Shown here one piece after another: positions 9,754 to 41,900 of a stretch of DNA of 45,187 bases. The notes under the pieces are model-generated. The model was not told the origin of the DNA. It did not search any database and saw nothing but the letters and a program-made list of their open reading frames with translations. This DNA is from an uncultured archaeon (GTDB lineage: Archaea; Thermoplasmatota; Penumbrarchaeia; JASLWR01): NCBI GenBank assembly GCA_964430885.1, contig CAYSHM010000017.1, positions 1-45,187 of the forward strand. Direction: 5' to 3'. Position 1 is the first letter of the stretch. Each line of letters begins with the position of its first letter. Position numbers and translations under genes: made by a program.

Positions 9754-12039
9754 ATGAGAAATGAAAAAAGGCTTGAGCTATTGATCATGGGCATTCTCCT
9801 GATTTTTCTCTTCGCCAATATTCCGTCTGTTCCCGTGGAGGGAACCACCCATATACATGTGGTTGTCACCTCTCCGGGAAATGACGGTGAGATAAGCGGA
9901 GAGGTGGATGTAAAGGGGCATGCAGATTCTGAAATGGAGATGATCTCGGTCTTGAAATTCCGGGTTGATGATTATCTCTGGCAGAATATAAGTTTTGAAG
10001 AAAGTAAGAGCGTTCAGTGGAATTTTACCCTGGATACCAGTGCATACCGCAACGGCAAACACAACATCTCCGTCAAGGCAGCGGATGCCCAGGATAGAGA
10101 GACCGTAATCCAAAAGGAATTTAGATTCTTCAACCGCGATGCACCAAACACTTTACCAATGATAACCCTTGATATCAACCCCGACGCCATGAATGTAACT
10201 GACGATCTCAATATGCATATAGTTGTAAAGGACCCGGATAGAAACATGGTAGGGGGCAGATGGAGATTGGGCGGATTCTCTTGGACAGAGTTCATTCTGG
10301 ATTGGGGGGCCACACTTGTGGACCGGAATCTGAGCTGGGACAGCTCCGATATTGCCAACGGGTATTACCAGCTGGTTCTAGAGGCAATTGATGCAGAGGG
10401 TAGTTCAGAGGTATCCATGCAGATATATATCAATAACGGTAACCAAAATATGGGGCCCACTCTTCAGATTACCTCACCTGAAAACAACACCCTTTTGAAG
10501 GAGGAAAGCATTGATATCAATGGTACCACCTCAGATCCTGACGGATATGTCTCATCTCTTCGCTTCATGATAAATGATGGTATTTGGATAGATATTGAGA
10601 TCAATAACGATAACCAGAGCCGCCAGCCCGGGGATGTCCTGTTTTGGGGAAAGACCATTCCCATATCATTTCTGGATACAGGGGACAATCAGCTGGGTTT
10701 CAAAGCAAGGGACAATCTCGGAAAATGGTCAGGCGTCAGATCCATCCATATTAAAAAGGGACATCTTAACAGGGCCGAAGCCAGGGTGATGGATCCGCCG
10801 CACGTTCTCCCTGTTGATACACTCCATACTTTTGACGGCTCACACTCGGATCCAAGTTTCGGATATGATATTGTGGAATTCAAGTGGACCCTCTATAGAT
10901 TCGGTGACGTCGTCTGGAACGTATCAGGTGAGGTAGTGGCCTACTACTTTTCCCAATGGGGTATCTATAATCTGACCCTGGAGGTGCTGGATTCCAATGA
11001 TATCCAGGACAATACCTCCTACATTTTCAGGATCGGGAACATTATCAATCTTTCAGATATCAAGGTCGAAATTGGAAAAGCCGGGTTTGTCAAGATCAAT
11101 TTCTCTCGTTATATCACCGGATTCTATCAGGGTATAGTTAATATCGAATGGGTGCTGGAGCATGGGGGGCCGAATAACAGAACCAATTCAAGTTTATCAA
11201 CCGGTACGGAGGATATGAATAACCTCATTTTTAACTACACCCATACTGGAAGTTTCAATCTTACACTGCTCATAGACACTGATCGGGGCCGCTTCACCCA
11301 AACCAGTGTTGTGATCGTCGAACCGGTAAAGAAATACTTCGATAGGCCTCCCAGGATCAAGATCATTCTGGAGGACGGTCTAGATGGTAAAGGAATAATA
11401 CAGAACAGAACCTTCACCCTCAACGCTTCCGATTCCTTTGATCCGGATGGTTATCCCCTTATTTTTGAATGGCTTCACATATACAAAGAGAACCTTGTTT
11501 CTCTGGATCCAGCCTCCATGGGAAAAGGAAACCATCCAGAAGGAAAATTCATCACACTCTCACTTCACCAGCCTGGTGAACATATCTTCAATCTAACAAT
11601 AACGGATATGAACGGTTCAGTGAATTACTCCGAGATGAGGATCACCATTAAAGAGGATACAACAGATTTCAGCCATTGGGGGGACCCAGTGACCTGGAGT
11701 CAGGAAGTAGAAGATAGGTGGAATGATACCTTCGGCAAATATGCTCTGCCCCCTCTTGGTGATATTGACGGAGATGGAGAGTTCAATTTCAGGGATACCG
11801 ACATGGACGGAGACGGTTTCTGGAACCAGGAAGAATTGGACAGAGGTTCAGATCCCACAGACCCGCTTTCAGTGCCCAGAGATCAAAAGGAAGATCAAAG
11901 CATACTGGTCTATTTACTGGGCGGTTTGATATTGGTCCTTATAATTTTTATAATGATCATCCTTCTGTTTCGAAGCCGCAAGAAGAAGGAATCACTTTAC
12001 TACAGGACCAGATATTCCAAGGATTGGGACTTTTTCTAA
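9754..12039 (+). CDS. Cell-surface protein with Ig-like/PKD domains, a DxDxDG Ca-binding-like motif and a C-terminal membrane anchor
   Basis: N-terminal signal peptide; ITSP...G...D Ig-like repeats; PKD-like FDGSHSDP and LNASDSFDPDG; many N-x-S/T sequons; DIDGDG/DMDGDG; TM helix followed by RSRKKK. Confidence 0.8.
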   Translation: MRNEKRLELLIMGILLIFLFANIPSVPVEGTTHIHVVVTSPGNDGEISGEVDVKGHADSEMEMISVLKFRVDDYLWQNISFEESKSVQWNFTLDTSAYRNGKHNISVKAADAQDRETVIQKEFRFFNRDAPNTLPMITLDINPDAMNVTDDLNMHIVVKDPDRNMVGGRWRLGGFSWTEFILDWGATLVDRNLSWDSSDIANGYYQLVLEAIDAEGSSEVSMQIYINNGNQNMGPTLQITSPENNTLLKEESIDINGTTSDPDGYVSSLRFMINDGIWIDIEINNDNQSRQPGDVLFWGKTIPISFLDTGDNQLGFKARDNLGKWSGVRSIHIKKGHLNRAEARVMDPPHVLPVDTLHTFDGSHSDPSFGYDIVEFKWTLYRFGDVVWNVSGEVVAYYFSQWGIYNLTLEVLDSNDIQDNTSYIFRIGNIINLSDIKVEIGKAGFVKINFSRYITGFYQGIVNIEWVLEHGGPNNRTNSSLSTGTEDMNNLIFNYTHTGSFNLTLLIDTDRGRFTQTSVVIVEPVKKYFDRPPRIKIILEDGLDGKGIIQNRTFTLNASDSFDPDGYPLIFEWLHIYKENLVSLDPASMGKGNHPEGKFITLSLHQPGEHIFNLTITDMNGSVNYSEMRITIKEDTTDFSHWGDPVTWSQEVEDRWNDTFGKYALPPLGDIDGDGEFNFRDTDMDGDGFWNQEELDRGSDPTDPLSVPRDQKEDQSILVYLLGGLILVLIIFIMIILLFRSRKKKESLYYRTRYSKDWDFF

Positions 12040-16217: not shown

Positions 16218-16435
16218 AAATTCATGGTTTGAAAGATAGAAATAAATGGCAATCTAGCTTATAGATGGTCTTAAAAATAATATGATATATTTTTTATCAT
16301 TTGAATAGGGTAATTATAATAACAAAAACCTTCATAATATATTATTATATCTTTACACTGAATCATTCGCAATCCGATTCATTTAATAGAAGATCTGCTA
16401 TGATGTGTTTAAAAAGAACCTCCAAGGTTGAACCG

Positions 16436-19400
16436 ATGTCGGAAAAGGATAAAAAAACGGCCGCCCGCAGTTCCGCTTCCAAAAGAACAGTCAGGAAGCG
16501 TGTAGTTAAAAAGAAAAGGACTGTTGATACTGATAAAAAATATATTGAAGAAAACCAGAGGATAACCGCAGAGAAGGAAAAAAAGAGCGAGGATGGGGTT
16601 TCAGATGAAGAATTGGAAGTAGGGGGCAAGGAAGAGGAAATTGATCCGAATAGTGCAGAGGACGAGACCACCGCAGAAGAGATGGAAAGGTGGAAGCGTA
16701 TTGAGGAGATGGCAGGTATCAAACTAAGTGATGTCCAGGTCCCGGAAGAGGAGCCAACTGATACCAAAGAAGGAATGGAGACTCAAGGATCTTCTAAAAA
16801 GAAACTAAGCTCTTCAAAGGGTCTTGTGCTTCCTCAGATAGATATCGGCCATATTCACAGAGAGAGAGGGCAGAAGGGTACAGGCAGGAAATACAATGTT
16901 TACATAGTCACCATAATAGTAGCCATCATCGTAGGTCTGTCCATATTCTCATACATCAGATATTCGGTCCCGCCCACCTCTTATGATACAGATGACGACG
17001 GTATGCCTGACAAATGGGAAAACCTCTACGGATTGGATGTCAGGGATTCCAAGGATAGAAATAAAGATATGGACGGAGACGGTCTGAGCAATATTGACGA
17101 GTATAAGGAGGATACCCTACCGGATAATCCTGATACCGACGGAGATAAGATACCGGACGGTTGGGAAGCACTCCATAACATGAACCCGAAGATTTCCTCC
17201 GATTGGATTCTGGACCTGGATTCAGACGGTGTGGAATACACGGTCAATAATATTACCCTCCAGATAAACTTCACCGCCAGAGATGAGTATATCGCTGGAA
17301 CTGATCCCAACGATCCAGATTCCGATGACGACATCATGTTGGACGGATGGGAGAATTATTTCAAACTGGATCCTCGGGATGGGTCAGATTCCGGCGAGGA
17401 TAACGACGGAGACAGCCTCACCAATATAGAGGAGTACGAAATGGGCACCAATCCCTCTTCAAAGGATACTGATTCTGATGAGCTGGACGATCTGGTGGAA
17501 ATTGTGACTTGGAAAACCGACCCTTTAAATTCAGATACAGACGGAGATCTTATCTTTGACGGATGGGAAGTAAAGAACAAAATGGATCCTCTTGACAGAA
17601 AGGATGCAAATCTCGACCCTGACAATGACAACCTCACAAGCTGGAGAGAGTTCCTCCATGGAACTGACCCCAACAATCCTGATAGCGACGGGGATGGAAT
17701 GCCTGACGGATGGGAAATAGATTGGGGAAGGAACTCCACCACAGGTGTCCTAGAGGTAGACCCCTCCAAGAACGATGGGAATCTGGATGCGGACAATGAT
17801 CTTCTGCCAAATGTCTGGGAGTTCAATAAGGGCACGGATCCCCTTAACCCCGACAGCGATAATGACGGTCTTTCAGACGGTGCTGAATGTTTTGTGGGCC
17901 ACCGTGGAAAGCTTCTGGGAGGGATATATTTTACCGAAGATCCGGATTGGATATATTTCACCGATCCCTTGGACCAGGACACCGATGGGGACGGGCTGTC
18001 TGATCATTTTGAGATCAACAATGGGATCAATGCGTCCAATGAAGATACTGATAATGACGAATTGGAGGATTTCGAAGAGATCAATACCATTCATACCTTT
18101 CCTTTCAGGGAAGACAGCGATAGTGACGGACTGAATGACCGTGAAGAGGTCAGAGGGACTTACGGTTATCTGACCAATCCTCTTCTAAATGATACCGATG
18201 AGGACGGACTTCATGACGGGGTGGAGGTACTGAACGACCATTTACCCTTCAGGGGTTCAACGGGACCTTTCGGCGTTCATTCCACAAATCCAACCATCAA
18301 GGATACCGACGGGGATAGTATTTTTGACGGATGGGAAACTGATAACGGTGCTACAAGAAAGATCACCTTAATTGAACGCTTCAACGGTGATGTGGGATTG
18401 GACACCTGGTTTGAGAGGGAATATGTCAATCTGAAATACAATTGGAACGGAACGGATTGGAAAGAGTTCCTGGATAAAGACGGTGACGGCCTTGTTGATC
18501 AGGATCTTCCCGCTGTCAACATAATAAATCCTCTGCTCTCTGAGGATAAACTGCTGGATCCCGACGGGGACGATCTCCCCAACTACATGGAGTTCTCATC
18601 ATATTCCGACAAAACAGGACTGCCATTTTCCACTGACCCTTTACTTGTGGACACCGATTCCGACGGAATGCCTGACGGATGGGAGCTGACCTATATTACC
18701 TATCTGGACGATCTGAAGGTTTGGATGCCGGATCCGCTTAAATGGGACGCACAGGAAGACCCCGACAGGGACGGCCATAATTACGAGATAGATGGATTGG
18801 AATATTATCATCCATTCGTGAATATTGAGGAATATTGGTGGTCGAATTTCTATCCCGATCATTGTGATCCCGTGGATCCAGATGTTGATTCAAACAGCGT
18901 GACCGACGGATCCGAGATATGGCAGCATTCCTATGACGGTAACATAGCTGAGGGCGATGGGCTGCCCAATGGTTGGGAATGTCTTTTCAGCGGATACAAC
19001 ATATACATTTACGGACCCAACGATTATATTCCCGAGAATATCATGACAGCCCTGTTCAATCCTTTTGAGGGTGACAGCGACAATGACGGGATTATGGACG
19101 GCAATGCTGACCCCGATGAGGACGATCACATCAACCTTGAGGAATTCCTTAGAAAGACAGATCCAACGGATCCGAACAGTGTTCCGAGCAGAACTAGACA
19201 TGGAAGGGATAGACATGCGGTAGAGCTAAGCCTTTCGCTCTCGAACCCAGGTGATGCGTCACTCAGGGGAACGGTTCAAAAGCCTTCGGAAACCGCTTCG
19301 GAACCTTTTACAGTGAGCGACCCCTACAGTAAGACTGCAGGCCGCAATGACCACACTCCAGTTTATTCCTTGATCATGCTTGTAATATTCGTCATTTTCA

Positions 19401-19456
19401 CTATAGAACTGGCAGTTCAGGAATTGCTTAGATCCTCTGCCTCTGGGAATCCGTGA
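16436..19456 (+). CDS. Membrane-anchored protein with many thrombospondin type-3-like (DxDxDGxxDxxE) Ca-binding repeats
   Basis: More than 20 D-x-D-x-D-G-x-x-D-x-x-E...DP repeats; charged N-terminus then a TM; second hydrophobic helix near the C-terminus. ATG 16436 is preferred over TTG 16301 because the upstream part is AT-rich and AGGTTGA precedes 16436. Confidence 0.85.
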   Translation: MSEKDKKTAARSSASKRTVRKRVVKKKRTVDTDKKYIEENQRITAEKEKKSEDGVSDEELEVGGKEEEIDPNSAEDETTAEEMERWKRIEEMAGIKLSDVQVPEEEPTDTKEGMETQGSSKKKLSSSKGLVLPQIDIGHIHRERGQKGTGRKYNVYIVTIIVAIIVGLSIFSYIRYSVPPTSYDTDDDGMPDKWENLYGLDVRDSKDRNKDMDGDGLSNIDEYKEDTLPDNPDTDGDKIPDGWEALHNMNPKISSDWILDLDSDGVEYTVNNITLQINFTARDEYIAGTDPNDPDSDDDIMLDGWENYFKLDPRDGSDSGEDNDGDSLTNIEEYEMGTNPSSKDTDSDELDDLVEIVTWKTDPLNSDTDGDLIFDGWEVKNKMDPLDRKDANLDPDNDNLTSWREFLHGTDPNNPDSDGDGMPDGWEIDWGRNSTTGVLEVDPSKNDGNLDADNDLLPNVWEFNKGTDPLNPDSDNDGLSDGAECFVGHRGKLLGGIYFTEDPDWIYFTDPLDQDTDGDGLSDHFEINNGINASNEDTDNDELEDFEEINTIHTFPFREDSDSDGLNDREEVRGTYGYLTNPLLNDTDEDGLHDGVEVLNDHLPFRGSTGPFGVHSTNPTIKDTDGDSIFDGWETDNGATRKITLIERFNGDVGLDTWFEREYVNLKYNWNGTDWKEFLDKDGDGLVDQDLPAVNIINPLLSEDKLLDPDGDDLPNYMEFSSYSDKTGLPFSTDPLLVDTDSDGMPDGWELTYITYLDDLKVWMPDPLKWDAQEDPDRDGHNYEIDGLEYYHPFVNIEEYWWSNFYPDHCDPVDPDVDSNSVTDGSEIWQHSYDGNIAEGDGLPNGWECLFSGYNIYIYGPNDYIPENIMTALFNPFEGDSDNDGIMDGNADPDEDDHINLEEFLRKTDPTDPNSVPSRTRHGRDRHAVELSLSLSNPGDASLRGTVQKPSETASEPFTVSDPYSKTAGRNDHTPVYSLIMLVIFVIFTIELAVQELLRSSASGNP

Positions 19457-22017: not shown

Positions 22018-23457
22018 TCAGATATCGATTAAAGATCTAAGGGTCTCAATTGTTTCAGAAAAATGGATTATTGTTTCCTTCTCAAAGCTCGTCTTGTAGA
22101 TATACCCGTTATCAACTTCAAAGATACCGTTGTTTGCAGGATAGGCTATTTCCTCAATAACCTTATCGTAGGCAAGATCGAACTCGGTATTATCATTTGC
22201 CGTGTCCCATGCTGTGTAGAACACCCAGAGGATTTCTCCGTTACTCCCTGTATAATGATATAATCTGTCGCCACCCCAACCCTGTGCAGCATCTTCGGCT
22301 TCCTGGGACAATACGCCGGTAGTGCCGGAAAGCAGTTCAGAGACCTGGATGTCCTCAATATCCCCCAGATACTGGTCAAGCATCTGCTGTATGAATGCTT
22401 CCCCCATTGTTTCAGAGAAATCAAGGATGAAATTATCAATTGGAATTTCGAATGATATTTCCACCGGGAGCTCGTCTGACCTGTATTTCTCATAGTGCAG
22501 AATCTGCTCACTGGATACCGGAGGTTCCATATACAGGTCGTTCACTCCGTCCCAGCCGCGTCCTGAATAGATCTGCTCTACGAAAAAGAGCCCTTGAATA
22601 TAGGGGAACAAAGTAAGGGTGGAAAGTGCTTTGCTTGAAACCCCGCCAGTTTGGGAGGTAATGGAGGATATTGAGGTGAACCCTGCATCGAGGTTCATTA
22701 ATAACAGATCCTCCCAGCTCATATCAGCCTGATATTTTGTCATGACAAGGCTTGCGTCACCCTCCACAACAGACAGTCGGGCAAGTGACTCGTCGAAGGA
22801 ATAATTGTTCCAAAGGTAGTTATCCAGTTCAAAATGCTGGTCCTGAAGAGCATGGGTATACTCATGGGACAGAATATAGTTCACATAGGGCTCGAAATGA
22901 CTTCCGATCACGTACATCTCCTTAGTGTCCGGATCATAGAATCCAGCGATCTGGTCCGCAGCAGAGTCAAGGGAGCCGTTGAAGAGATCTGCTTCCTCAT
23001 CTATAATGAACAGGTCCTTGTAGATCCGCTCCTCTCGATGAAAATCCTCAAGATCCTCGGGAGTGATGGAATCCTGGAGATAATCTTTCAATCTTGACTT
23101 GGACATGGTTCTCTGGGGAATAGTTTCCTTCGCTTCCAAACCCCTGATATGGCCAACATCGTTTATATCAACATAATCTGCCTCGGTGTTCTTGGTCCAA
23201 TAATAATATAGAGAACCGGATATCAGGAGCAGAAGAACAACGGCTATTCCCGCAAGAATTGGAATGTTCTTCTTCCTGCGTTTTCGGTCCCTTAGGTTTT
23301 TTCGGCGGTGTTCCTTTTTCTTATCTGAATACCTGAAATATATATTGCAGCTGGGGCAGTATTTGTCATCATTCAAGGGATCGTTCCCTTCACCCTGAAA
23401 ATTGATCCCGGGCTTACTGCACTCGGGACACTTTACCGCAATATTGATCTCATTCAT
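22018..23457 (-). CDS. Membrane-anchored HEXXH zincin-like protein with an N-terminal Zn ribbon
   Basis: CPEC...CPSC, basic run, TM, then IRGL, AGFYDP, HEYTHALQDQ, VEGDA, FPY.QG, P.SSEQILH and AAQGWGGD. Alternative start 23496. Confidence 0.75.
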   Translation of the reverse strand: MNEINIAVKCPECSKPGINFQGEGNDPLNDDKYCPSCNIYFRYSDKKKEHRRKNLRDRKRRKKNIPILAGIAVVLLLLISGSLYYYWTKNTEADYVDINDVGHIRGLEAKETIPQRTMSKSRLKDYLQDSITPEDLEDFHREERIYKDLFIIDEEADLFNGSLDSAADQIAGFYDPDTKEMYVIGSHFEPYVNYILSHEYTHALQDQHFELDNYLWNNYSFDESLARLSVVEGDASLVMTKYQADMSWEDLLLMNLDAGFTSISSITSQTGGVSSKALSTLTLFPYIQGLFFVEQIYSGRGWDGVNDLYMEPPVSSEQILHYEKYRSDELPVEISFEIPIDNFILDFSETMGEAFIQQMLDQYLGDIEDIQVSELLSGTTGVLSQEAEDAAQGWGGDRLYHYTGSNGEILWVFYTAWDTANDNTEFDLAYDKVIEEIAYPANNGIFEVDNGYIYKTSFEKETIIHFSETIETLRSLIDI

Positions 23458-23562
23458 AAGCTCACATCTCGTTTGCTTAGATAAAGAATAGAACATTCAT
23501 CTTATACAAAATATTGGAAATTTTTAATTGGTTCCATTATTGAAGATCTGATAATAGTTCTC

Positions 23563-26500
23563 CTACTTGATATCTTCAAGCTGGTACTTGGTCAGACCTG
23601 ATAGGATATCATCCTTGTTTCCGTTCACCGCGTCTATGAATATCTGCCTCGGTCCTCTCTTTCCCTTTATTGAAATAATGAAATAGGGATAATAAACCAC
23701 ATCCTCAGAATCCAAAGACAGCCCGTCCCCAAGGGTATCTATGATACTCTTGATATCGTTAGTCTTGTATTCTGGCTTAAGGGCCTCGGTCTTTATATCC
23801 CCTTCCCTTATGTAAGGTAGGTCCGGTACAGCTCTTGTGAACTTTGAAGGCACATTCAGATCAATATCCCTGGCATACCTGTAACCTCCATCGCCTGAAA
23901 CCTCCTTGTTGACCAGTCCTTCCTTTTCCAGGTTCTTCAAGGCCCGGTTGAGATCCTGAGCCCGTAGAGATGTTTTCAGCTTGAGCTCAGTGTCCATGAG
24001 AAAGGCGCTTCTCCTCAGGTAATAGAGTGTTTTGATTTCAGAGACGCTTCTACCGAAAAGATGCCAGAGGTTCATGGTTCTTTTAAGACCCTTCTTGTAT
24101 CTCGTGACCAGTTCTCCAGTTACCGGATCGAAGAAAAGGGTATAGTTTTTCTTTTTCCTGCGGATAAGACCCTCTGTTCGGCTCACGGTCAGCCGCATCA
24201 GCGGAAGGAAGGTTATCTGGGATCCGGTTACCATTTCTATTCTCTTTTTCTTTATCAGGCCTTTGGTCTCAAGATCCGACATTGCCGAACTCTCCGCACG
24301 TGAATCAGTTATCTGGGGTTCCACAACAAGGTGCCTGCTACCGGGGGCCAAGAAATCGAATTCCGGCTGATCGTAATCTTCGTATATATCTTCTCTGGCA
24401 GGCGGTTCGGATTCGGTTATTGATCCAGGTTCATCCCGACCAACAGGAATCTCGGTTCCTGACAACTCTGTACTTCGGGCAATTTCAGCCGCCAATTCCT
24501 CACGATGAACCTTATCTGCAAATTCGGATTCAGTTATTCTTTGGGACGACTCCATTTCAGGTCGAAGATCCAGTACCTTCCTGGGCTTGACCATTCTCTT
24601 CAAGGGTTCTCCTGGTCTTCTTCTTGCAACCATCTCTTCTCTGGGGGAAGGTCCAGGAGCAGGCAGATGAACTTTCTGAATGTCCTCCTCCCTGATATTA
24701 CGTCCCTGCAGGGTTCTGCGGAGATAATCCTGGTTGAACCTGATATCCGGCCATCCCATTCCCTGATTCGGGTCCCTTACCTGCCCTCCTGGAAAATGGC
24801 GATATCCCGCAGCTGGCATTCCGGCATCGTCTCGGTGTTCATCATTCTCATCCACCTTTATGACATATGTAATGCCGTTCTCATTCTCCTCTATATCCAC
24901 GTTGCCATCCTCTTCCACCCATTCCTCGATAAACCTCTCTTTCTTCTCATCAAGGACATCCTCCTTGATCTTGAAAACCACTCCGCTTTCATCCTTCTCG
25001 ATAACCACACCTTCCTCCTCCTCCGCCCATTTTGGTACCTCCTTCACCTTCTCCTTGAGCGACTCCTTAATCGAAAGTTCATCATTGGCTAACACTTCCT
25101 CGATCCTGTGGACCCCTGCCTCAGGATCTACTTCATCATCATTCTCGGCAGCGTCAGAATCCAGTTCCCAATCCACTGAATCATCACTGGATGCTCCTTT
25201 ATCTTCTGCTTTATTCAGATCAGCTTCGGCTTCCGCCTTCTTTTTGGACCTATCATCCTTGGTTTCTGCTTTCTCACCTTCAGCGTCCATTTTTCCAACA
25301 TCATCATCAAAATCTTCTTCTTCTTCTTCTGAGACGATTTCAGCAGCACTAGCATCTTCAAGGGAAACTTCTGATTCCGGCCCAGGTTCTGCTGAAATAC
25401 CCGTTTGGGTTTTTTCCGGAATTTCATAGGTTTCATACTCTGTCCCTTCAATAAGCTCTCTGTCAAAGACCTTGTCCATTTCCATTTCCAGAAGCAGAAG
25501 CTGTTTCTCATCGAGTACACGGGACATGACGTTGAAAACCACCACTCCTTTAAGTACCAGGGCGATCTCATGAATACACTGGACAACCTCGATCATGGCC
25601 TTGAATCCCTTTACGGTCATAATATATTCCAATCCGTTGATATATACAAATCCCGGGGAATTCTCCTTGAGGAACTCGGCAATCTTTCCAACCATGTTCC
25701 AGAGGTCATTTGGATCAAGACTGTTCTTAATGGGAGTACGTGATAACCAATAATAAATGACATCCTTCTTTGAAAATTCGCCCAATACTTTGGATCGGGG
25801 AATACGGGAGATCAGAAGTACCTTTTTCCGGTCTTGGAGACTATCCTCTTCTTCCCCCTCTTCACTGTCCTCGGTATCCTCTTCTGGCTGCTTATCATCC
25901 ATCAGGTCCTTCAGGAACTCGATTGCCCTCTTACCCCTTTCGTCTTTGAAAAGAAAATGAGGTCCTTCCTCAAGGGCCTTGATTAGAAGTTCAGATCCCT
26001 CAATATCATCGATATTTCTTTCTTCCAGGTCCATTTGGGTTATGACACTGTGAATATCCAATTCCCTCTTCTCAGGTACAGCAGTGGGAGCGGTAGGTTT
26101 CTCTTCAGCCGGGACTTCAGTGGTTTCTTTCTCATCAGCCTGCTCTTCCTGGTAAGGCGTGTTTTCCTCAACCAATACATCCACTTCTGCCTTTTCCTCT
26201 GGTCCAGGTTCTATCGAATCCTCAGGTTTCCCCTCCATTTCCTCTTCTTCCGGTATTTGTACTGATTCATCATCAATATCAACATCATCTGCAGGTCCTT
26301 CCTCTCTATCCGACTTATCTTCATTCTTTTCCTCTACCGGGGTATCAAGTTCCTTTAGATCGACCTCACCGTCCTTCATCATATCCTCTACGGTAAAAAC
26401 CTTGGATGGAGCCAAGTGATCAATATCCTCATAAGACCTGACGGATTCCACAGCTTTCTCTTCCGTTGTCACCTTCTCCTCCTCGATCTCCTCATCTTTC

Positions 26501-28530
26501 TGAATTTGGGGAAGGTCTTGGTCACTGACATGCTCTAGAGCTTCTTCAATGGCCTTTTCTTTCCCGGATTTTATTATCGGGTCTTTCTTTTCAGGTGGTT
26601 CCACCATAATTTCTTTTACCCTGCCTCTCTGCCGGCTCTTTCTGGCCAGATCGGAGAAAGTGACAATCCCCGAGCCACTTCGCTGGATTTCGCGGTCATC
26701 CGCTTTAATTTCTCCCTGCTCTTTTTTCCTATCCTCGGGATGTTCAGATCTGAATTCTGGAGGGAACGGATCTTCAAGAAGACTGTCATTTACATGTTCA
26801 TCACCAAGTATCTCCCCTCCATGCTCCTTGGAAGCGCTTTCATCTTCAACAAGGGCTTTCCTCATTTTGGGTTCCAAACCTGCATGGCCAACCACAAAAA
26901 CCGGTCTGGTATCCTCCTCCTTTTTCTCTTCAGGGGAATCAATATGGACAAACATCTTCTCCACATTGATAGATGGGGTCAGCACCGAGGAGCCGCCTGC
27001 CTTGAACTTAGGGGTAACGGATTCAGGTACAGGTGCATAAGAAACACTCTCCCTGGAATCCACGATGTTCTGGGGGGTTGCAGCTTTCCCTGAATGATAT
27101 GACTGCCGGGGTCTGAACTTGGCGAATAAGGTCCTCTGCTGGGTCTTCTGATCGGCAATAATGCCCATTCCCGTAGGTATGGACCTTATGAAATCAGTGT
27201 TCATCAGTACATTTGGCGCCTTTGCGGGTATTCTCTTTTTCAGGGCCTGTATATCATCCTTCAGAGCTAAATTATGACTGAGCATCATGTCCACCTGGGA
27301 AAGTACCTCGTCATCGGTGGATGCCGGTCTCTGGGTAGCAAGGACAAGAGCGCAGCCGGGCCTCCGGCCTAGTTTTGCATACTCGATAAGAGCGGATGTT
27401 GCAGGGGTGCTCTTCCTGTGAGGCAGAATCAGATGCGCCTCATCTATCAGAAGCCAGGTAACTGGAATGGACTCGCCTCGAGAGACGTTCAATCCCATGG
27501 AAATGGCCTCTTCTCTTTTGGAGGCCTGTATTCGCCCTTCAAGGATCTTACGAGCCAGAATTCCAACGATTAGGGCTCTCTTGTCATCGTCGAGCTTGGG
27601 ATGTGAAACGTCGATGACAGTTACCCTGTTGGCTTTGATAAGCTGGGTTATGGGGGTTCCATCAACCGAGAATATCCCCCAATTTCCAGCTGCCAAGAAT
27701 CTAGCCCCCATTGACCTTCTGGTGGAAACCGCGTAACCTTTCTTTTTGGATTGAAAATCAATATCATGCTCTATGCATTGAATTATATCGCCTATGGAGT
27801 AAGCATTGTCCTTACCAGGCATCTCAACCTTTCTCTCCCCGTATAGAGCAATATAACCTTCTCTTACCTTGTTGATGACATCACCAATTAAAAGACCCTG
27901 AGCCTTGAAACGGTTGACATCGAACATTGTACACCAGTCACCAGCGCTCATTTCATGTATCGCTATTGAAAAATTATCATCTATTACGGCTTCCATTCCG
28001 TCCTCGTATCCCATGGGAGTATATACATCGACATTATGAAAACCGCGGGCTTCCAATCCGAAGGACCTCAGCTGCTCTATCTCTTTATCTGACCTGTTCT
28101 TCCTTTTCATAGACCAGAATATCCCTATTGGATCAATGAGCACCGTTCCTATGCCCTGTTCTCCCTTGGCCAGTTCTTCGGCTATGGTTCCCAGTGTATA
28201 GGATTTTCCGCTTCCCCTTTTCCCGCAGATGAATATGATATGAGGGAACTGGTTATCGATCATTATCTGTCTTGCAAGATGATTGTCACCTGAAAGCTGT
28301 GTTTCCGCTACCACCCCAATATCCATTAGTCCCGTGTTCCCGATCTCCTGGTGTTCACTTCTTCTTCTTCCAAGGACTATGTAATCGTTCTCAGTATCTA
28401 TAAGTGGGTTCAGCGGGCTCTCTATCTCGGGCACATAATTGAAAAGATAACTTTCATCCTCTCTAACCTCTTCGTCAAGCCCATTTTCTATTTGGATGTC
28501 ATTGATATCGATATCCTTCATAACTTCCAC
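23563..28530 (-). CDS. HerA/DUF87-type P-loop ATPase fused to acidic linkers, a DUF835 domain and a winged-helix-containing C-terminus
   Basis: Walker A GKRGSGKS (28201-28224); IDPIG; Walker B LLIDEAH; GRRPG; ATQRP; DUF835 signature WLS...DP..L...I.EFL...INGLEY...GF...LLE.E; wHTH LNRALKNLEKEGLV. Start may be ATG 28521. Confidence 0.85.
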   Translation of the reverse strand: MEVMKDIDINDIQIENGLDEEVREDESYLFNYVPEIESPLNPLIDTENDYIVLGRRRSEHQEIGNTGLMDIGVVAETQLSGDNHLARQIMIDNQFPHIIFICGKRGSGKSYTLGTIAEELAKGEQGIGTVLIDPIGIFWSMKRKNRSDKEIEQLRSFGLEARGFHNVDVYTPMGYEDGMEAVIDDNFSIAIHEMSAGDWCTMFDVNRFKAQGLLIGDVINKVREGYIALYGERKVEMPGKDNAYSIGDIIQCIEHDIDFQSKKKGYAVSTRRSMGARFLAAGNWGIFSVDGTPITQLIKANRVTVIDVSHPKLDDDKRALIVGILARKILEGRIQASKREEAISMGLNVSRGESIPVTWLLIDEAHLILPHRKSTPATSALIEYAKLGRRPGCALVLATQRPASTDDEVLSQVDMMLSHNLALKDDIQALKKRIPAKAPNVLMNTDFIRSIPTGMGIIADQKTQQRTLFAKFRPRQSYHSGKAATPQNIVDSRESVSYAPVPESVTPKFKAGGSSVLTPSINVEKMFVHIDSPEEKKEEDTRPVFVVGHAGLEPKMRKALVEDESASKEHGGEILGDEHVNDSLLEDPFPPEFRSEHPEDRKKEQGEIKADDREIQRSGSGIVTFSDLARKSRQRGRVKEIMVEPPEKKDPIIKSGKEKAIEEALEHVSDQDLPQIQKDEEIEEEKVTTEEKAVESVRSYEDIDHLAPSKVFTVEDMMKDGEVDLKELDTPVEEKNEDKSDREEGPADDVDIDDESVQIPEEEEMEGKPEDSIEPGPEEKAEVDVLVEENTPYQEEQADEKETTEVPAEEKPTAPTAVPEKRELDIHSVITQMDLEERNIDDIEGSELLIKALEEGPHFLFKDERGKRAIEFLKDLMDDKQPEEDTEDSEEGEEEDSLQDRKKVLLISRIPRSKVLGEFSKKDVIYYWLSRTPIKNSLDPNDLWNMVGKIAEFLKENSPGFVYINGLEYIMTVKGFKAMIEVVQCIHEIALVLKGVVVFNVMSRVLDEKQLLLLEMEMDKVFDRELIEGTEYETYEIPEKTQTGISAEPGPESEVSLEDASAAEIVSEEEEEDFDDDVGKMDAEGEKAETKDDRSKKKAEAEADLNKAEDKGASSDDSVDWELDSDAAENDDEVDPEAGVHRIEEVLANDELSIKESLKEKVKEVPKWAEEEEGVVIEKDESGVVFKIKEDVLDEKKERFIEEWVEEDGNVDIEENENGITYVIKVDENDEHRDDAGMPAAGYRHFPGGQVRDPNQGMGWPDIRFNQDYLRRTLQGRNIREEDIQKVHLPAPGPSPREEMVARRRPGEPLKRMVKPRKVLDLRPEMESSQRITESEFADKVHREELAAEIARSTELSGTEIPVGRDEPGSITESEPPAREDIYEDYDQPEFDFLAPGSRHLVVEPQITDSRAESSAMSDLETKGLIKKKRIEMVTGSQITFLPLMRLTVSRTEGLIRRKKKNYTLFFDPVTGELVTRYKKGLKRTMNLWHLFGRSVSEIKTLYYLRRSAFLMDTELKLKTSLRAQDLNRALKNLEKEGLVNKEVSGDGGYRYARDIDLNVPSKFTRAVPDLPYIREGDIKTEALKPEYKTNDIKSIIDTLGDGLSLDSEDVVYYPYFIISIKGKRGPRQIFIDAVNGNKDDILSGLTKYQLEDIK

Positions 28531-30519: not shown

Positions 30520-30555
30520 CTCCCCAATCGGTTTTTTATTATGGAGGCTGAAAAA

Positions 30556-33057
30556 ATGATCACAAAAAAACGAATAATAATATCATCGATCTTGTGTATG
30601 GTATTGCTTCTGAGTGCATCAATGACAACTATGGGTTCGTCAGAGAGGGACGAGGATGCGAGAGGCGGTATCAATCATGTGAACATCATTGTGTTTGATC
30701 TAGAGGAGAACGATCTCCTTCCAGATACATTGCTGAAATTCTTTAGGGTAGAGCCCAATGGAAATGAAGAATTCTTGGGTGAGCATTTTACCGATGAGAA
30801 TGGAACATTCTCCGGGAGGCTGGAGAACGGCACTTATCTGGTGGAAGCTCATCACCGCGGTCATGAACCGGGGCATATCATGTTCGATACCCACGGAATG
30901 AACCAATCATTGAACTTTGAAATTGGCCTTATGCCCATTCACCACCCTGAACCAGTTATGGTCAAGATCATTCCATTGTCCGTTGAGGGTGAGATAATTC
31001 ACGAGGCAGTGGCATCGTTGATCAACATTGAGACAGGCGATGGTTTCAGGGAACACATGGAGAATGAAAGATGTATTGAGTTGGAAGTTCCAGAAGGAGA
31101 ATATGTGATGGAGGTCTTTGCTGAGGGGTACGAGGGATTTGACGATATCATTGAACTTTGGGATATTCCTGACTTCACCATCACTGTGGAACTTATTCCT
31201 GAAGAGGAGGAAAATGAAGAGGCTCTGGTAACTATTGAATTCCTTCTTGAGAATTCGGATGAACTGGTTCATCACGGCAGAGTTGAGATGATCAATACGG
31301 AGACCGGAGAAGTCTATTGGGGTGAGATCGTTGACGGGTTCACAATTCTCGTACTTCCGTGGGGCCATTACAAACTGATTGCAGAAATACCAGATCATAA
31401 ACCTGTGGAAGATGGATATGAGATCTTTGAATGTGTAGACTTCTTTATTACCATAGTCTTCGGACATATGGAGGAGGAATTTGGTTTCATAGAAGGCAAA
31501 ATATTTGATATTGAGTCAGGAAAACCCCTGCCTGAAACTTATATCTTCATTGAATCCCAGGAATACTGGATGGAGGATGATGTTCCCTGTGACGATGGTG
31601 AATTCTACAATAATGAAAATTGCGGGAAGTGGTTCTTCTTCGAGACCTGGACCGGGGAGAATGGTGAATTCTATTTCGATGAGATACCCATGGGTGAGTA
31701 CATTATTTACATCGAACATCCCGGTTTCCATGAGATCAGGGAGGAGTTCAAGGTCTTTGAAGAAATGTTATTCCTGGAATTCGGTTTGAGACCATTCGAA
31801 GATGTGAAACCTGAAGAATTTATCCTAATAACTGGAAACGTGTTTGACGGGTTCAGCGGAGAGGGAATTCCCCATGCATTAATATCTTTCCATCCATATC
31901 AAGAAGAACCCCATCATCCAGAATACAGACCTCACATATTATTCGAGTATTATGACGGCGACAGTGACGGTAATCCCGAGATCATGCTCTTGAAGGCTGA
32001 TTTCGATGGTGATGGAAAGGTAGACCTTCATTATGTCTACATTGACGAGAACAGCGATGGTAACCCTGAATGGATCAAGGTTGAGGCTTCATGGATGTTC
32101 CCGGGTTTCCACATGGAACTTCCCGGACTCATGGAATATTTAGAGCTCATGGGATACGGATGGGACCACTATGAGGATGAGGAATGGGAGGAATGGGACG
32201 AAGAAGAAGAATGGTGGGATGAGGACGAGGATTGGGAAGACGAAGATGAATGGGAAGATGAGGACAGGACAAGAGGAGGAAAAGAATGCAAAGGGGAGCA
32301 CAAAGAGAAGGAATATAAGGAGGAGGGAAAGGAACACTGCCCACCCGACCCTGAGTGTGAGTTTTTAAAGGTAAAGACTGACGATACTGGCTTCTTTGAG
32401 ATCAAGGTTCCCATGGGTGTTTATACTGTCACGGTTGAAGCTGAAGGCTATCATCCGTTCAAGGAGGTCTATATGATTTTCCCGGAAATGGAGGATAAAG
32501 AGGAATACGACAATGAGGAAATTCCCTCCATGGAACTCATCTTTGAACTCCGCCCCTACGGTGAAGATGAAGAAGCCATGAATATTGTAATGGATGAGAA
32601 CGAGAACTATGATAAAAAAGATATCATAGGGACCGAGAAGGAAGAAATCGGCAGTCTTGACATGGATTCCCTTGTGGATAGGTTCTTGGAGAACGATGAC
32701 TATGATGTGGATATCGAACCCTTCAAGGAAGTATTATCCGATGCAAAGGATAATACGGCTGGAGAGAAGAAGAACTCCTCAACAAACACTGAAGGAGCTG
32801 AAAGCACGGTCAGCTATACTTCAGGAACCACTGGAAGCATTATAAATCTCGGTGCGGCCTTGGGTATTCTGCTAATTCTCTTGGCTCTTCTCCTGGTATT
32901 GAAGAAAAGAAACAGCAATAAGAAAGAGAGGAATCCTCAAAAGGATGATAAAATGGAAATACCACCTAGAAGACCTGAATACGATTTCAAACCATTAGCT
33001 CCCAGCCCAAAGGTCAGGACCGTGAGGGTAACAAGGAGAAGACAGCTGAAAAGGTAA
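30556..33057 (+). CDS. Acidic cell-surface protein with carboxypeptidase-regulatory-like (CnaB/transthyretin-like) beta-sandwich repeats and a C-terminal TM anchor
   Basis: Signal peptide; repeated TDxNG.F....P.G.Y.+.+.AEGY/HPGF units; DxDxDG loops; TM followed by KKR. ORF track start is 30541. Confidence 0.8.
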   Translation: MITKKRIIISSILCMVLLLSASMTTMGSSERDEDARGGINHVNIIVFDLEENDLLPDTLLKFFRVEPNGNEEFLGEHFTDENGTFSGRLENGTYLVEAHHRGHEPGHIMFDTHGMNQSLNFEIGLMPIHHPEPVMVKIIPLSVEGEIIHEAVASLINIETGDGFREHMENERCIELEVPEGEYVMEVFAEGYEGFDDIIELWDIPDFTITVELIPEEEENEEALVTIEFLLENSDELVHHGRVEMINTETGEVYWGEIVDGFTILVLPWGHYKLIAEIPDHKPVEDGYEIFECVDFFITIVFGHMEEEFGFIEGKIFDIESGKPLPETYIFIESQEYWMEDDVPCDDGEFYNNENCGKWFFFETWTGENGEFYFDEIPMGEYIIYIEHPGFHEIREEFKVFEEMLFLEFGLRPFEDVKPEEFILITGNVFDGFSGEGIPHALISFHPYQEEPHHPEYRPHILFEYYDGDSDGNPEIMLLKADFDGDGKVDLHYVYIDENSDGNPEWIKVEASWMFPGFHMELPGLMEYLELMGYGWDHYEDEEWEEWDEEEEWWDEDEDWEDEDEWEDEDRTRGGKECKGEHKEKEYKEEGKEHCPPDPECEFLKVKTDDTGFFEIKVPMGVYTVTVEAEGYHPFKEVYMIFPEMEDKEEYDNEEIPSMELIFELRPYGEDEEAMNIVMDENENYDKKDIIGTEKEEIGSLDMDSLVDRFLENDDYDVDIEPFKEVLSDAKDNTAGEKKNSSTNTEGAESTVSYTSGTTGSIINLGAALGILLILLALLLVLKKRNSNKKERNPQKDDKMEIPPRRPEYDFKPLAPSPKVRTVRVTRRRQLKR

Positions 33058-38731: not shown

Positions 38732-38991
38732 ATCGCTTACCATTTATATTTGACCTTTTTTATTGGGGTATAACGGTTTTTTTCGGTCAATATGGCCGGG
38801 AACAATTTTGATATAGTATTTGAGATGAAAAAGTAATAAATATAATAAGGTATTTTTAAGTCGGGAATATATACCCAACTAACATCTGATAAAATAATGC
38901 TGATATATGTTAATTTTATAGGCAGAATAGAATATCGAACGCAACTTCTTTCTGCTGTTTTTTTGCAGTCAAACCAAGAGATGTGAATCCA

Positions 38992-41900
38992 ATGGTACCG
39001 GAAGATAATACACAAAGTGAATCTCAGACAGAGAATTCATATACGCCAGACAAGGTCCAAGCAATAATCACCAAAGTGGAGACCTTGGTAGATCAGAGCA
39101 ACCAAGAGACTTTGAAGGAAAAGGCCCTAAAATACCTTGTTAAATCCAAAGAAGAACTTGGTAAGGACCTGAAACGTTCCCTTTTATTAGCACTTAAAGC
39201 TAAACAGATTCTTCAGGAGGGGAAACCGACCGAGGAAGAAAGCACATCAGAGGAGAAGAAAGAAACTGAAACCCCATTAAAGAAAGCCGAAACGAGTGAA
39301 CAGGTGGAGAAAAAGGAAGAAAAAATCCCGGAAGGAATAACAAAACCGGCGGCTTTGGAGCGAGAAGCAGTACCGGGACTGTCTCCTGAACTGAACGATT
39401 TATTCTACAATGTAAAGGATAGGTTGGAAGTGTGCAAAGGCTTGGGTGCAGACGTTTCTGAACCAGAGGAGCTACTTGACCTTGCCCATAAGGAAATAAG
39501 ATTGGAACAATTCATATTCCTTAAAGAACATCTCAAAAACGCAATTGAGCTTCTGGATACCATTCAGATAGAGTTCTGTGATAAGAAAATTGCTGAGATC
39601 AAGAGTATCCAAGATGATATAGATCCCATTATTCAGAAGATAGAGGAGAGGGAAGGGGATGTGGTAAGTCTTAAAGAAAGGCGCAATGAAATGGTATCTC
39701 TGACCAATGACAGGAAATTCGATAAGGCAAATGAAATGGGCTCTGTATTATTGGCAGATGCGGCTAGATTATTGGAAAGAACCCTTATCCTCACCAATAA
39801 ACAGGAGATCGTCAATCTGAAGAAGGAATTCGATGAATTCCAAGAAATGACCTCAAAGAAGAACCCTGATCTATTGGACCTGCTGAGAGGGGCGGTTTTA
39901 GCCCTGAAGAACAAGGAGCATCAGAAGGTCAATGAGATTGTCGGCGAGTTCAAGATAGGATTCGAAAAATCCCAACAAAGACATCGGAAAAGCCTGCTTA
40001 TTGAACAGCTCGACGGATTGGAGCAGGAGCTGACCTTGGCATTTGAACTAGGGCTCGATGAGACAGAGATAGAAAGCAACCTTCAGCTTATCAAGAATAA
40101 GATGGAAGAGAATGAGCTTGGCCCCATACCAGATCTGATAAAAGGAATAAATGAGAAGATAGAGAAGATCAAAAAGGAAGGAGCAAAGGAGTTCACGGAA
40201 ATGGTCCTTAAAGAGGTCATTGAGCTGGAAAATGAACTGAATGAGAACGAGATATCCATCGATCCTGAAGAGAGGGGAGCTATCGACGGGAGATTGTCCA
40301 AGGCTAAGGAGGCTATGGAAAACAAGTTTTTCCTGGAAGCATACCGATCATCCAGCAAGGCAAAAGAGATATTGGAGGAAAAATGGAGGAATTACAGAGG
40401 TGAAACCGTTGCTCTTGAGATCGAGAAGATAAAGGAATTTCTGGAAAGAAGCCAGGATTATGATTTTGTCGCTCAGAAAGATATTGACGAAATTAGAACA
40501 AATCATCAGAAGGTCATGGAAACCTATGATGAAGGGGACATAGAGAAGGCTTACGACCAGCTCATGGGTATAGAAGGCCTTGTCAAGCTTCAGAGAAATC
40601 TCATCACTGATTTTAATAAATCGGAATCCATGCTGGTGAAGACTCGAGAGCTGATAGAGACTTGTAAACAGGTGGATATTGACACATCTCAGGAAGAAGA
40701 GTTTCTAGAACAGGCCGGAACGTTGTTTGAATCAAGAAGCGATATAAGCAAGACCCTTCAGATACTTCGGAATACCTATAAACTGCTTGAAAGTAAAATG
40801 GAGGACATTAACCGGAGGAAAGCCGATGAAACATTCCAGAAGGCAAAAGGAATGATAGAAAATTATAAGGATCTTCTCGATAACACCGAAGGGTTTACCA
40901 ATGCACTCAACGAGGCAAAGGTTGCCTTTGATGAAAAGGATTATCCCAAAGTACTTGATCTGGCTGGCAACGTGATATCAGATATTGAGCTCATTATCAA
41001 GAGCGGAAGAAAGGAAGCAATAGAGAAAATGCTTTCAATATGTGAAGAACTTATCGAGAAGAACGAGAAATTGAACATCGATATGATGATGACAGAGGCT
41101 CTGATATTCAGAGCTAGAAAGGCGATCAGAACTTCAAATCTGATGATGGCTGACGAATATGCCAATAAAGCCAGAGAAAACGCAAAGAGCGCTCGAAATG
41201 ACTATTTCAAGAATCGGTTGGCAAATAACTTCAAACAATCTGTAGAACAGATAGCTTTCGGCAGGGAACTAGGTTTGGAACTGGACGCAGTATCTAGTGA
41301 GATTGACGAACTGAGTAAAAAGCAGGGGAGCACACCTCCTGAGGATCTGTATCAGGAATTAATAAAGGTCACTGATGAACTGAATACCAAGACCCAATCC
41401 ATTCTCATGGAGATGCTGAACAAAGAGGAGGAGGGGATAAAGGAGCTGCTTGCGGAATCTAGAGAAGAAGGACTGCAGATTGAGGGAGATGGGGGTCTTT
41501 CAGTGATCGAAGTCATGAAGGAGAAGGAGGAACTGCGGGAAGCTTTAGACCTTGCTAAAATATCCAGGGAGTCTCTAACCCGAAAATTCAATTCATTCAT
41601 GAAGATCAAATATAGTTCTCTGATAGGAGATTACAAGGTTGAGATAACAGCGGTTGAAACTGAGATAGGCAGTGAACAGCCAGAGCTTCAGGTTCATTTG
41701 ATGGAGATAAACGATGCTTATGAGGACGGGAATTTTAAAAAGCTTAAGGCGGCTGTGAATGAATATAAGAACACAAAGACGAATCTCCGAAATCAATTCA
41801 ATGCTGAAAAATATTCAAAGGAACTGAAGCTGATAGATGAGGAGAGCGCACCCCTCAAGGACCTGAACCTGGACATATCCCAGCTTCTGTCCTTGACGGC

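Follow-up and report, generated by a model that had tools for sequence, protein, structure and literature searches.

An uncharacterised HerA/FtsK-superfamily ATPase with an internal DUF835 domain and a winged-helix tail, encoded by an uncultured archaeon of the Thermoplasmatota

The stretch of DNA analysed here, referred to as the window, is contig CAYSHM010000017.1 of an uncultured archaeon of the Thermoplasmatota (assembly GCA_964430885.1; 45,187 nt), and on its minus strand, at positions 23563 to 28530, lies one uninterrupted frame of 1655 codons that opens with a GTG and encodes a large multidomain ATPase. The database copy of this protein (P0002) shows 100% identity, has 1652 amino acids (aa) and begins at an ATG three codons inside the window frame, and this ATG at 28521 is the likely true start of the gene. 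From its N to its C terminus the protein consists of an ATPase core, a long acidic linker, a DUF835 domain, a second acidic linker and a tail in which a winged helix-turn-helix stands between two related beta/alpha units (Table 1). Here, we find that the gene is real and that its product belongs to a conserved, so far uncharacterised group of HerA/FtsK-superfamily ATPases, which forms a clade of its own. A preliminary description, made from the letters of the sequence, had already listed an intact HerA/DUF87-type ATPase, a DUF835-like domain at about 25460-25960, two long acidic linkers and two similar beta modules around a winged helix, and Pfam together with structure models confirmed this list of domains and their coordinates.

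Table 1. Features of the ATPase gene in window coordinates (HMM, hidden Markov model; AF2, AlphaFold2; pLDDT, predicted local distance difference test)
Feature	Position	Strand	Evidence and remarks
Whole open reading frame	23563..28530	-	1655 aa from GTG; ATG at 28521 = likely true start, 1652 aa
HerA/FtsK-superfamily ATPase core, aa 40-490	27061..28413	-	DUF87 40.3 bits; core HMM E 1.8e-230; 42-70% identity to relatives
Walker A GKRGSGKS, aa 103-110	28201..28224	-	invariant in 50 sequences
Walker B LLIDEAH, aa 360-366	27433..27453	-	D363, E364, H366 invariant in 50 sequences
Acidic non-conserved linker 1, aa 496-840	26011..27045	-	29% Asp+Glu; matches only own copy P0002
DUF835 (inactivated KaiC-like), aa 856-1024	25459..25965	-	Pfam 79.7 bits; AF2 core pLDDT >90; no Walker A
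Acidic non-conserved linker 2, aa 1036-1396	24343..25425	-	29% Asp+Glu; matches only own copy P0002
Tail unit A, beta/alpha, ends FFDPVTG, aa 1397-1487	24070..24342	-	AF2 pLDDT 95; homologous to unit B
Winged helix-turn-helix, aa 1488-1558	23857..24069	-	VIA-align Z 10.9 to MarR 3cjn; Foldseek E 2.4e-3
Tail unit B, beta/alpha, YYPYF...FIDAVNG, aa 1571-1655	23566..23820	-	AF2; homologous to unit A

The ATPase is by far the best conserved part of the protein, with 42-70% identity to its relatives as compared to 22-31% in the DUF835 stretch (alignment A3) and none in the linkers. Pfam DUF87 (PF01935) matches aa 101-329 with 40.3 bits (cut-off 23.2), and HerA_C gives 17 bits, which is under its cut-off. 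Walker A, Walker B and an ATQRP motif at aa 398 are invariant across 50 aligned relatives, and these motifs, the last of which contains the Gln/Arg that follow the sensor strand, and the DUF87 match place the protein in the HerA/FtsK P-loop superfamily. Because of the invariance of all three motifs, the motor appears to be active.

Could the protein be a canonical HerA, i.e. the helicase of double-strand-break repair, that is merely decorated with additional domains? HerA of the HerA-NurA system belongs to the same P-loop superfamily and shares the DUF87 match, the closest solved structure by sequence is a HerA (PDB 4d2i, E 2.2e-7, aa 288-415 only), and public tables place Asgard relatives of the window protein in arCOG00280, 'HerA helicase'. 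We nevertheless regard this explanation as extremely improbable. The NCBIfam HerA equivalogs remain far under their cut-offs (HerA_Thermprot 42.6 bits versus 800, helicase_HerA 25.8 versus 970), and in a sequence profile search the HAS barrel (PF09378) is absent from the Pfam matches of the window protein at E≤1, whereas the 526-aa canonical HerA of the same genome, on contig C2, has a HAS-barrel match. This C2 HerA reaches only E 9.9e-27 with an HMM of the family core built from aa 40-490, as compared to 1e-140 to 1e-239 for the members of the family. Moreover, neither NurA nor Mre11 nor Rad50 was found by a Pfam scan of the 24 other open reading frames (ORFs) of the window, in agreement with the preliminary description, none of the three belongs to the neighbours conserved across 76 loci of relatives, and the window protein differs further from HerA by a very long branch and by its DUF835 domain, linkers and tail. 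The same genome encodes a third HerA-type ATPase of 746 aa on another contig (C10:98212-100452, minus strand), in which an N-terminal TFIIB-like ribbon is followed by DUF87 and four C-terminal zinc ribbons.

Is this architecture confined to a single protein? A protein search returned 107 relatives of 910-2897 aa, and 47 clusters besides the protein's own copy carry both PF01935 and PF05763 (DUF835). Searched segment by segment, the ATPase found 107 proteins, DUF835 found 47 and the C-terminal 255 aa found 55 (P0002 included in the latter two), while each linker found P0002 only. The core HMM gave E values of 1e-225 to 1e-239 for members from Thermoplasmatota, about 1e-205 for Hadarchaeota-type proteins, 1e-157 to 1e-177 for Asgard proteins, 1e-140 to 1e-151 for a DPANN group and about 1e-90 for proteins of ~440 aa from DPANN and Methanosarcinales that consist of the core only. 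A quick IQ-TREE run on 63 rows, from which seven partial-core rows and a duplicate (L034_c, equal to P0057) were left out, united the Thermoplasmatota, Hadarchaeota-type, Asgard and DPANN proteins in one clade (Shimodaira-Hasegawa-like approximate likelihood ratio test, SH-aLRT, 97), which is divided from the core-only group by a branch of length 1.9, with canonical HerA far beyond. On this evidence the ATPase core is placed as a distinct clade far from canonical HerA, and the groups of the tree follow the phyla. Beside the core-only ATPases (loci L063-L076), a SurA-like peptidyl-prolyl isomerase, a 438-aa protein and a Toprim protein occur in 7 loci.

We determined the distribution of the ATPase in a sample of 300 other genomes of the phylum. 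Within the same class, 32 of the 36 other genomes have the ATPase (E≤1e-60), each as one match except for genome G190, in which the orthologue appears as two adjacent matches (C22:22172-23534; aa 36-269 and 266-491), as would result from a frameshift or a damaged gene; the four that lack it have a completeness of 69-82%. Outside the class, 8 of 264 genomes match, three with long forms and five with core-only proteins of ~425-448 aa (E about 1e-61 to 1e-64). Across GTDB, with one genome per species, 512 stretches encode a relative. A single copy in nearly every genome of the class, and tree groups that follow the phyla, are what one expects of a housekeeping gene passed on vertically in certain lineages and not of a defence gene. 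The candidate machine of the preliminary description is not a singular one; it is one member of a family that is present nearly throughout a class and shares its DUF87-DUF835 combination with 47 other clusters.

A misassembled fusion, which had been named as a possible refutation of the description, is rejected. Contigs from two public sequencing runs span the entire 5.3 kb with zero differences, joints or loose ends, and two more runs of the same study contain identical low-depth fragments, linker DNA included. As all four runs come from a single study and two of them are possibly the source of the assembly, this support is weak as independent evidence, and the relatives with the same architecture are the stronger argument. 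RNA data were not present among the public runs listed as carrying the stretch.

The C-terminal tail offers one of the two strongest functional leads. AF2 modelled the last 259 aa from a 59-row alignment with a mean pLDDT of 95 and a predicted template modelling score of 0.89, and resolved a beta/alpha unit, a three-helix winged helix and a second beta/alpha unit in this order. An hhalign comparison showed that one unit is a homologue of the other (probability 94.5%, E 7.7e-8). The winged helix superimposes on the MarR protein 3cjn with a root-mean-square deviation of 1.8 Å over 67 residues, and 3cjn is also the only match of a PDB sequence search with the tail (E 0.88); Pfam MarR_2 matches aa 1515-1547 at 15.4 bits, under its cut-off of 27. 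Fold searches with the whole tail (Foldseek, exhaustive VIA-align) returned winged-helix proteins only, and the flanking units were thus barely probed. For these units a relationship to PepSY (PF03413) is a weak lead: the window protein has no Pfam match to this family, unit B of one relative (P0143) gives 22.2 bits against a cut-off of 24, and Foldseek points to YpeB 5boi with a probability of 0.08.

How widely is the tail used? A HMMER search of 1.84 billion representatives found it in 68 proteins, and we scanned with Pfam the 40 of them that had not yet been recognised as family members. A DUF87 ATPase lies N-terminal to the tail in 17 of the 40. Of these, 16 are 506-732 aa long and have an ATPase that is only distantly related to the family, with core HMM values, where tested, of only 1e-3 to 1e-5. 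Another protein carries Mrr_cat, one carries HSDR_N together with DUF87, and four combine DUF835 (with or without SAP) and the tail without an ATPase, which may be truncated gene calls. On more than one occasion the tail has thus become attached to HerA-type ATPases and nuclease-type domains, and this recurrence is the best evidence that it would serve as a DNA-handling accessory of such motors. In addition, the tail is the sole basic part of a protein with a net charge of -127 (18% Lys+Arg versus 14% Asp+Glu). The MarR-like winged helix, the basic charge, the SAP-like motif that neighbours it in relatives and the recurrence on HerA-type ATPases and nucleases together make the tail point to DNA as its probable partner.

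Within the family, a tail HMM detects the tail in Thermoplasmatota, in the Hadarchaeota loci L031 and L033, in P0138 and in all ten DPANN rows, and in the Asgard rows it finds only a weak partial match (P0070). The Hadarchaeota and DPANN forms keep ATPase and tail without DUF835. The ancestral form was likely a core with a tail, into which Thermoplasmatota inserted DUF835 and a SAP-like motif, while Asgard archaea replaced the termini.

FtsK forms a ring that pumps DNA, and it combines a long unstructured linker with a DNA-reading winged helix at its C terminus. The window protein resembles FtsK/SpoIIIE by analogy only, in its presumed ring motor, its long linker, its C-terminal winged helix and its ATQRP motif. 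It differs in that Pfam FtsK_SpoIIIE (PF01580) is not among its matches at E≤1, it has no membrane domain, the motor comes first so that the order is reversed, and the winged helix is of the MarR type, with a beta/alpha unit on either side. The highest hydrophobicity of any 19-residue segment is 1.72 and falls within the folded DUF835 core, and the encoded protein is predicted to be soluble.

The DUF835 domain is recognised by Pfam (PF05763) at aa 898-1018 (nt 25477-25839) with 79.7 bits against a cut-off of 33.1, and it was also found in a six-frame search of the genome. When aa 835-1040 were modelled with AF2, only aa ~899-1024 were predicted with confidence; the N-terminal third of the model (~65 residues) is poor, partly since MAFFT aligned this stretch to the P-loop region of HerA. 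Foldseek ranked FlaH 4yds first (E 1.6e-3, TM 0.41), followed by many KaiC chains, none with E≤0.001, and direct reading of aa 841-1035 revealed no P-loop of the form GxxxxGK[ST]. This agrees with the degenerate KaiC-like nature that had been ascribed to the domain, as does a table of Galperin et al. 2018 (PMC5847659), which labels DUF835 'iKaiC', for inactivated KaiC, and lists REC-DUF835 architectures. Five ORFs of this genome contain DUF835, and in the other four, which are PAS-PAS-, V4R-, HEAT- and beta-propeller-DUF835 proteins, it always comes last, C-terminal to sensor-type domains, whereas in the window protein it is internal and joined to a motor. Because of this position behind sensor domains, we take DUF835 to be a module for output or docking that several proteins share, rather than the controlling input domain proposed in the preliminary description.

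These paralogues also bring to mind a signal-controlled regulator of transcription or chromatin, in which the winged helix and DUF835 would be the business end and the ATPase would drive only assembly or turnover. DUF835 indeed occurs otherwise in sensor-type proteins, the PAS-PAS-DUF835 protein has an additional weak helix-turn-helix match, and the winged helix is MarR-like. Against such a regulator stand a conservation that is concentrated in the ATPase and drops in DUF835 and the linkers, and the Hadarchaeota and DPANN forms, which dispense with DUF835 and keep ATPase and tail; we consider it quite unlikely.

The window protein is the longest member of the family and has its longest linkers, neither of which contains tandem repeats at the DNA level. 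By our reading of the alignment region by eye, a SAP-like motif follows DUF835 in 38 of 50 aligned relatives and is missing in the clade of the window protein (P0001, P0003-P0008), which appears to have lost it; precomputed Pfam annotation calls SAP on 10 of the 107 proteins of the search. In linker 2, at aa 1172-1222 (24865-25017, minus strand), two short stretches resemble each other, GVVIEKDESGVVFKIKED and NVDIEENENGITYVIKVDE; they are not kept in relatives and could form a pair of small beta hairpins.

Besides the recurrence of the tail, the strongest functional lead comes from the gene context of the Asgard orthologues, whose cores are 42-47% identical to that of the window protein and fall in the same clade. 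In 18 of 25 Asgard-type loci, one or two Snf7/ESCRT-III genes lie within 3.7 kb on the same strand, mostly directly flanking the ATPase gene; of the seven loci in which none was found, six are cut short beside the ATPase gene, and only L059 has room and yet no Snf7. In a Helarchaeota locus (L039), genes for Vps4 and a UEV/Vps23 core adjoin the ATPase, and a 1169-aa open frame (L039:6519-10028) begins with a partial match to Snf7 (aa 31-133) and continues into the ATPase. As the published annotation starts this gene later, at L039:7413, the frame may reflect a genuine fusion, the remains of a Snf7 gene or a fault of the assembly. In 16 Asgard-type loci, a protein of ~345-360 aa without a Pfam match directly follows the ATPase, before the second Snf7 gene (e.g. 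L035:8802-9839). The Asgard form itself differs from the window protein by an N-terminal extension of ~250 aa, another C-terminus and the lack of DUF835 and tail; neither its N-terminal nor its C-terminal region is similar to the tail. A search of the ESM Atlas with the N-terminal 255 aa of the Asgard protein gave nothing usable, since its best score, 0.81, is lower than what one-third of shuffled proteins attain.

In the literature searched, these Asgard genes are catalogued and are not discussed. Makarova et al. 2024 (mBio version; PMC10936438) list in supplementary table S9 genes of Asgard ESCRT loci as 'HerA helicase' (arCOG00280; cog.002297, cog.002299, cog.002300), with an empty ESCRT-component column in the 'HerA' rows listed (30 of 46), and one row (Hel_GB_B 50169..52940) coincides exactly with our L055 gene. 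The main text of that paper does not mention HerA, FtsK, DUF87, P-loop, translocase or helicase, and Hatano et al. 2022 do not mention HerA, DUF87 or P-loop. Among the matches listed for ESCRT, HerA and Asgard, none concerns this gene by title and abstract, and those listed for HerA with Snf7 are unrelated work only. In the literature searched, no paper links DUF87 with ESCRT-III and none discusses the DUF87-DUF835 architecture.

The flanking Snf7 genes, and in L039 the frame that begins in Snf7 next to Vps4 and UEV/Vps23, raise the alternative of an ATPase that remodels membranes or translocates proteins, acting on ESCRT-III-like polymers or on other proteins, with the winged helix making protein contacts as in ESCRT-II. 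Yet neither Snf7 nor the MIT domain was found in the window genome, a MarR-like winged helix is present in the Thermoplasmatota, Hadarchaeota and DPANN forms with a SAP-like motif in most of the Thermoplasmatota ones, and other proteins combine the same tail with nuclease-type domains (Mrr, HSDR_N). We therefore rate this alternative as unlikely. Small ORFs downstream of the Hadarchaeota genes and a 525-aa coiled-coil protein beside Thermoplasmatota relatives were tried as divergent ESCRT-III and rejected (hhalign ≤0.2% against a Snf7 alignment).

Does the neighbourhood of the window gene itself contain a partner? None of the 23 other genes of the window recurs beside relatives in the 76 loci, and hence there is no effector partner for the ATPase. 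PolB and ThiF match at unrelated positions only, in 1 and 2 loci, respectively. One Thermoplasmatota family shows synteny with genes for a coiled-coil/zinc-ribbon protein, TPR, EMC6, transglutaminase, PTPS and QueC, which we read as shared ancestry and not as function. The gene 66 bp downstream (22018-23496, minus strand) was considered as a partner and rejected, as it stands beside no relative. Its 492-aa product, which Pfam does not match at E≤0.001, starts with a CxxC...CxxC zinc ribbon and contains a single hydrophobic helix and an HExxH-type motif (HEYTH), features that suggest a metalloprotease anchored in the membrane.

This setting bears on whether the protein could be an ATPase of anti-virus defence or of a mobile element, comparable to the HerA of Sir2-HerA or DUF4297-HerA. 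The PADLOC models for HerA (E 3.6e-16) and mad8 (E 6.1e-15) match, and the tail occurs elsewhere with Mrr_cat and HSDR_N. However, these PADLOC matches are generic and partial, with unrelated HerA-type proteins scoring equally well or better, no effector neighbour is conserved, the surrounding genes are ordinary metabolic and surface genes, the gene is single-copy and present nearly throughout the class, and the groups of the tree follow the phyla. A defence role is thus very unlikely.

Elsewhere in the window, three large proteins on the plus strand (9754-12039, 16301-19456 and 30541-33057) contain Big_7/PKD, TSP3 and CarboxypepD_reg repeats and are probably secreted or surface proteins; their genes surround housekeeping genes for PolB, RNase HII, SurE and archease. 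A plus-strand frame at 38983-45186 runs off the window end after more than 2068 aa; it is without Pfam matches at E≤0.001, lies in a stretch of strong positive GC and AT skew and possibly encodes a giant surface protein.

From the domains, the intact motifs, the conservation, the phyletic pattern, the fold of the tail and the gene context of the relatives, we infer, with about even confidence, a housekeeping motor that is tethered to DNA. The core would assemble into a hexameric ring of the HerA/FtsK type, and the basic tail, to which most relatives add the SAP-like motif, would hold this motor on DNA. In our reading it acts as a translocase or remodeller of double-stranded chromosomal DNA that likely clears, segregates or resolves it, probably coupled to cell division, and neither as an end-resection helicase nor as a defence ATPase. 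The DUF835 domain, suspended between floppy acidic linkers, would most likely be a docking or oligomerisation adaptor and could couple the motor to the other, sensor-carrying DUF835 proteins of the genome.

Several observations weigh against such a chromosomal role. The protein has no membrane anchor of the FtsK type, and its only hydrophobic segment is part of the folded core of DUF835. Only few Thermoplasmatota outside the class have the gene, and it is therefore not a universal requirement. In the orthologues of Asgard archaea the tail is missing (hhalign probability ≤0.4%), so that their substrate could differ. In the window genome, which is 91.6% complete and has three FtsZ/tubulin genes, no Snf7 was detected by a six-frame Pfam search, for which the control was weak (signal only in Sulfolobus, under the cut-off), or by an HMM of the Asgard neighbours (E≤10), and no MIT domain was detected either; the ESCRT link is thus not directly transferable to this genome. 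Finally, winged helices can also bind protein, as in ESCRT-II.

A bolder and rather unlikely extension of the DNA-tethered motor is that the whole ATPase clade represents the archaeal counterpart of FtsK, i.e. a division-coupled chromosome pump that is plugged into different machineries in different lineages. The Asgard form would then work between ESCRT-III genes, while the form of the Thermoplasmatota class would be tethered by its winged-helix tail and linked through DUF835 to a network of DUF835 sensor proteins.

To our knowledge, no FtsK equivalent has been assigned for the movement or clearing of chromosomes at division in most archaea. With its conserved, apparently active and putatively ring-shaped motor, its recurrent, putatively DNA-binding tail, its near-universal, single-copy presence in the class and the ESCRT-III context of its Asgard members, the family described here is a concrete candidate for such an archaeal chromosome motor, and DUF835, a widespread domain, gains a first context beside an enzyme. 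What is new is the connection between a class-wide motor family and the ATPase that lies between the ESCRT-III genes of Asgard archaea, the closest archaeal relatives of eukaryotes. If this link is functional, Asgard ESCRT loci would hold an unrecognised second ATPase besides Vps4.

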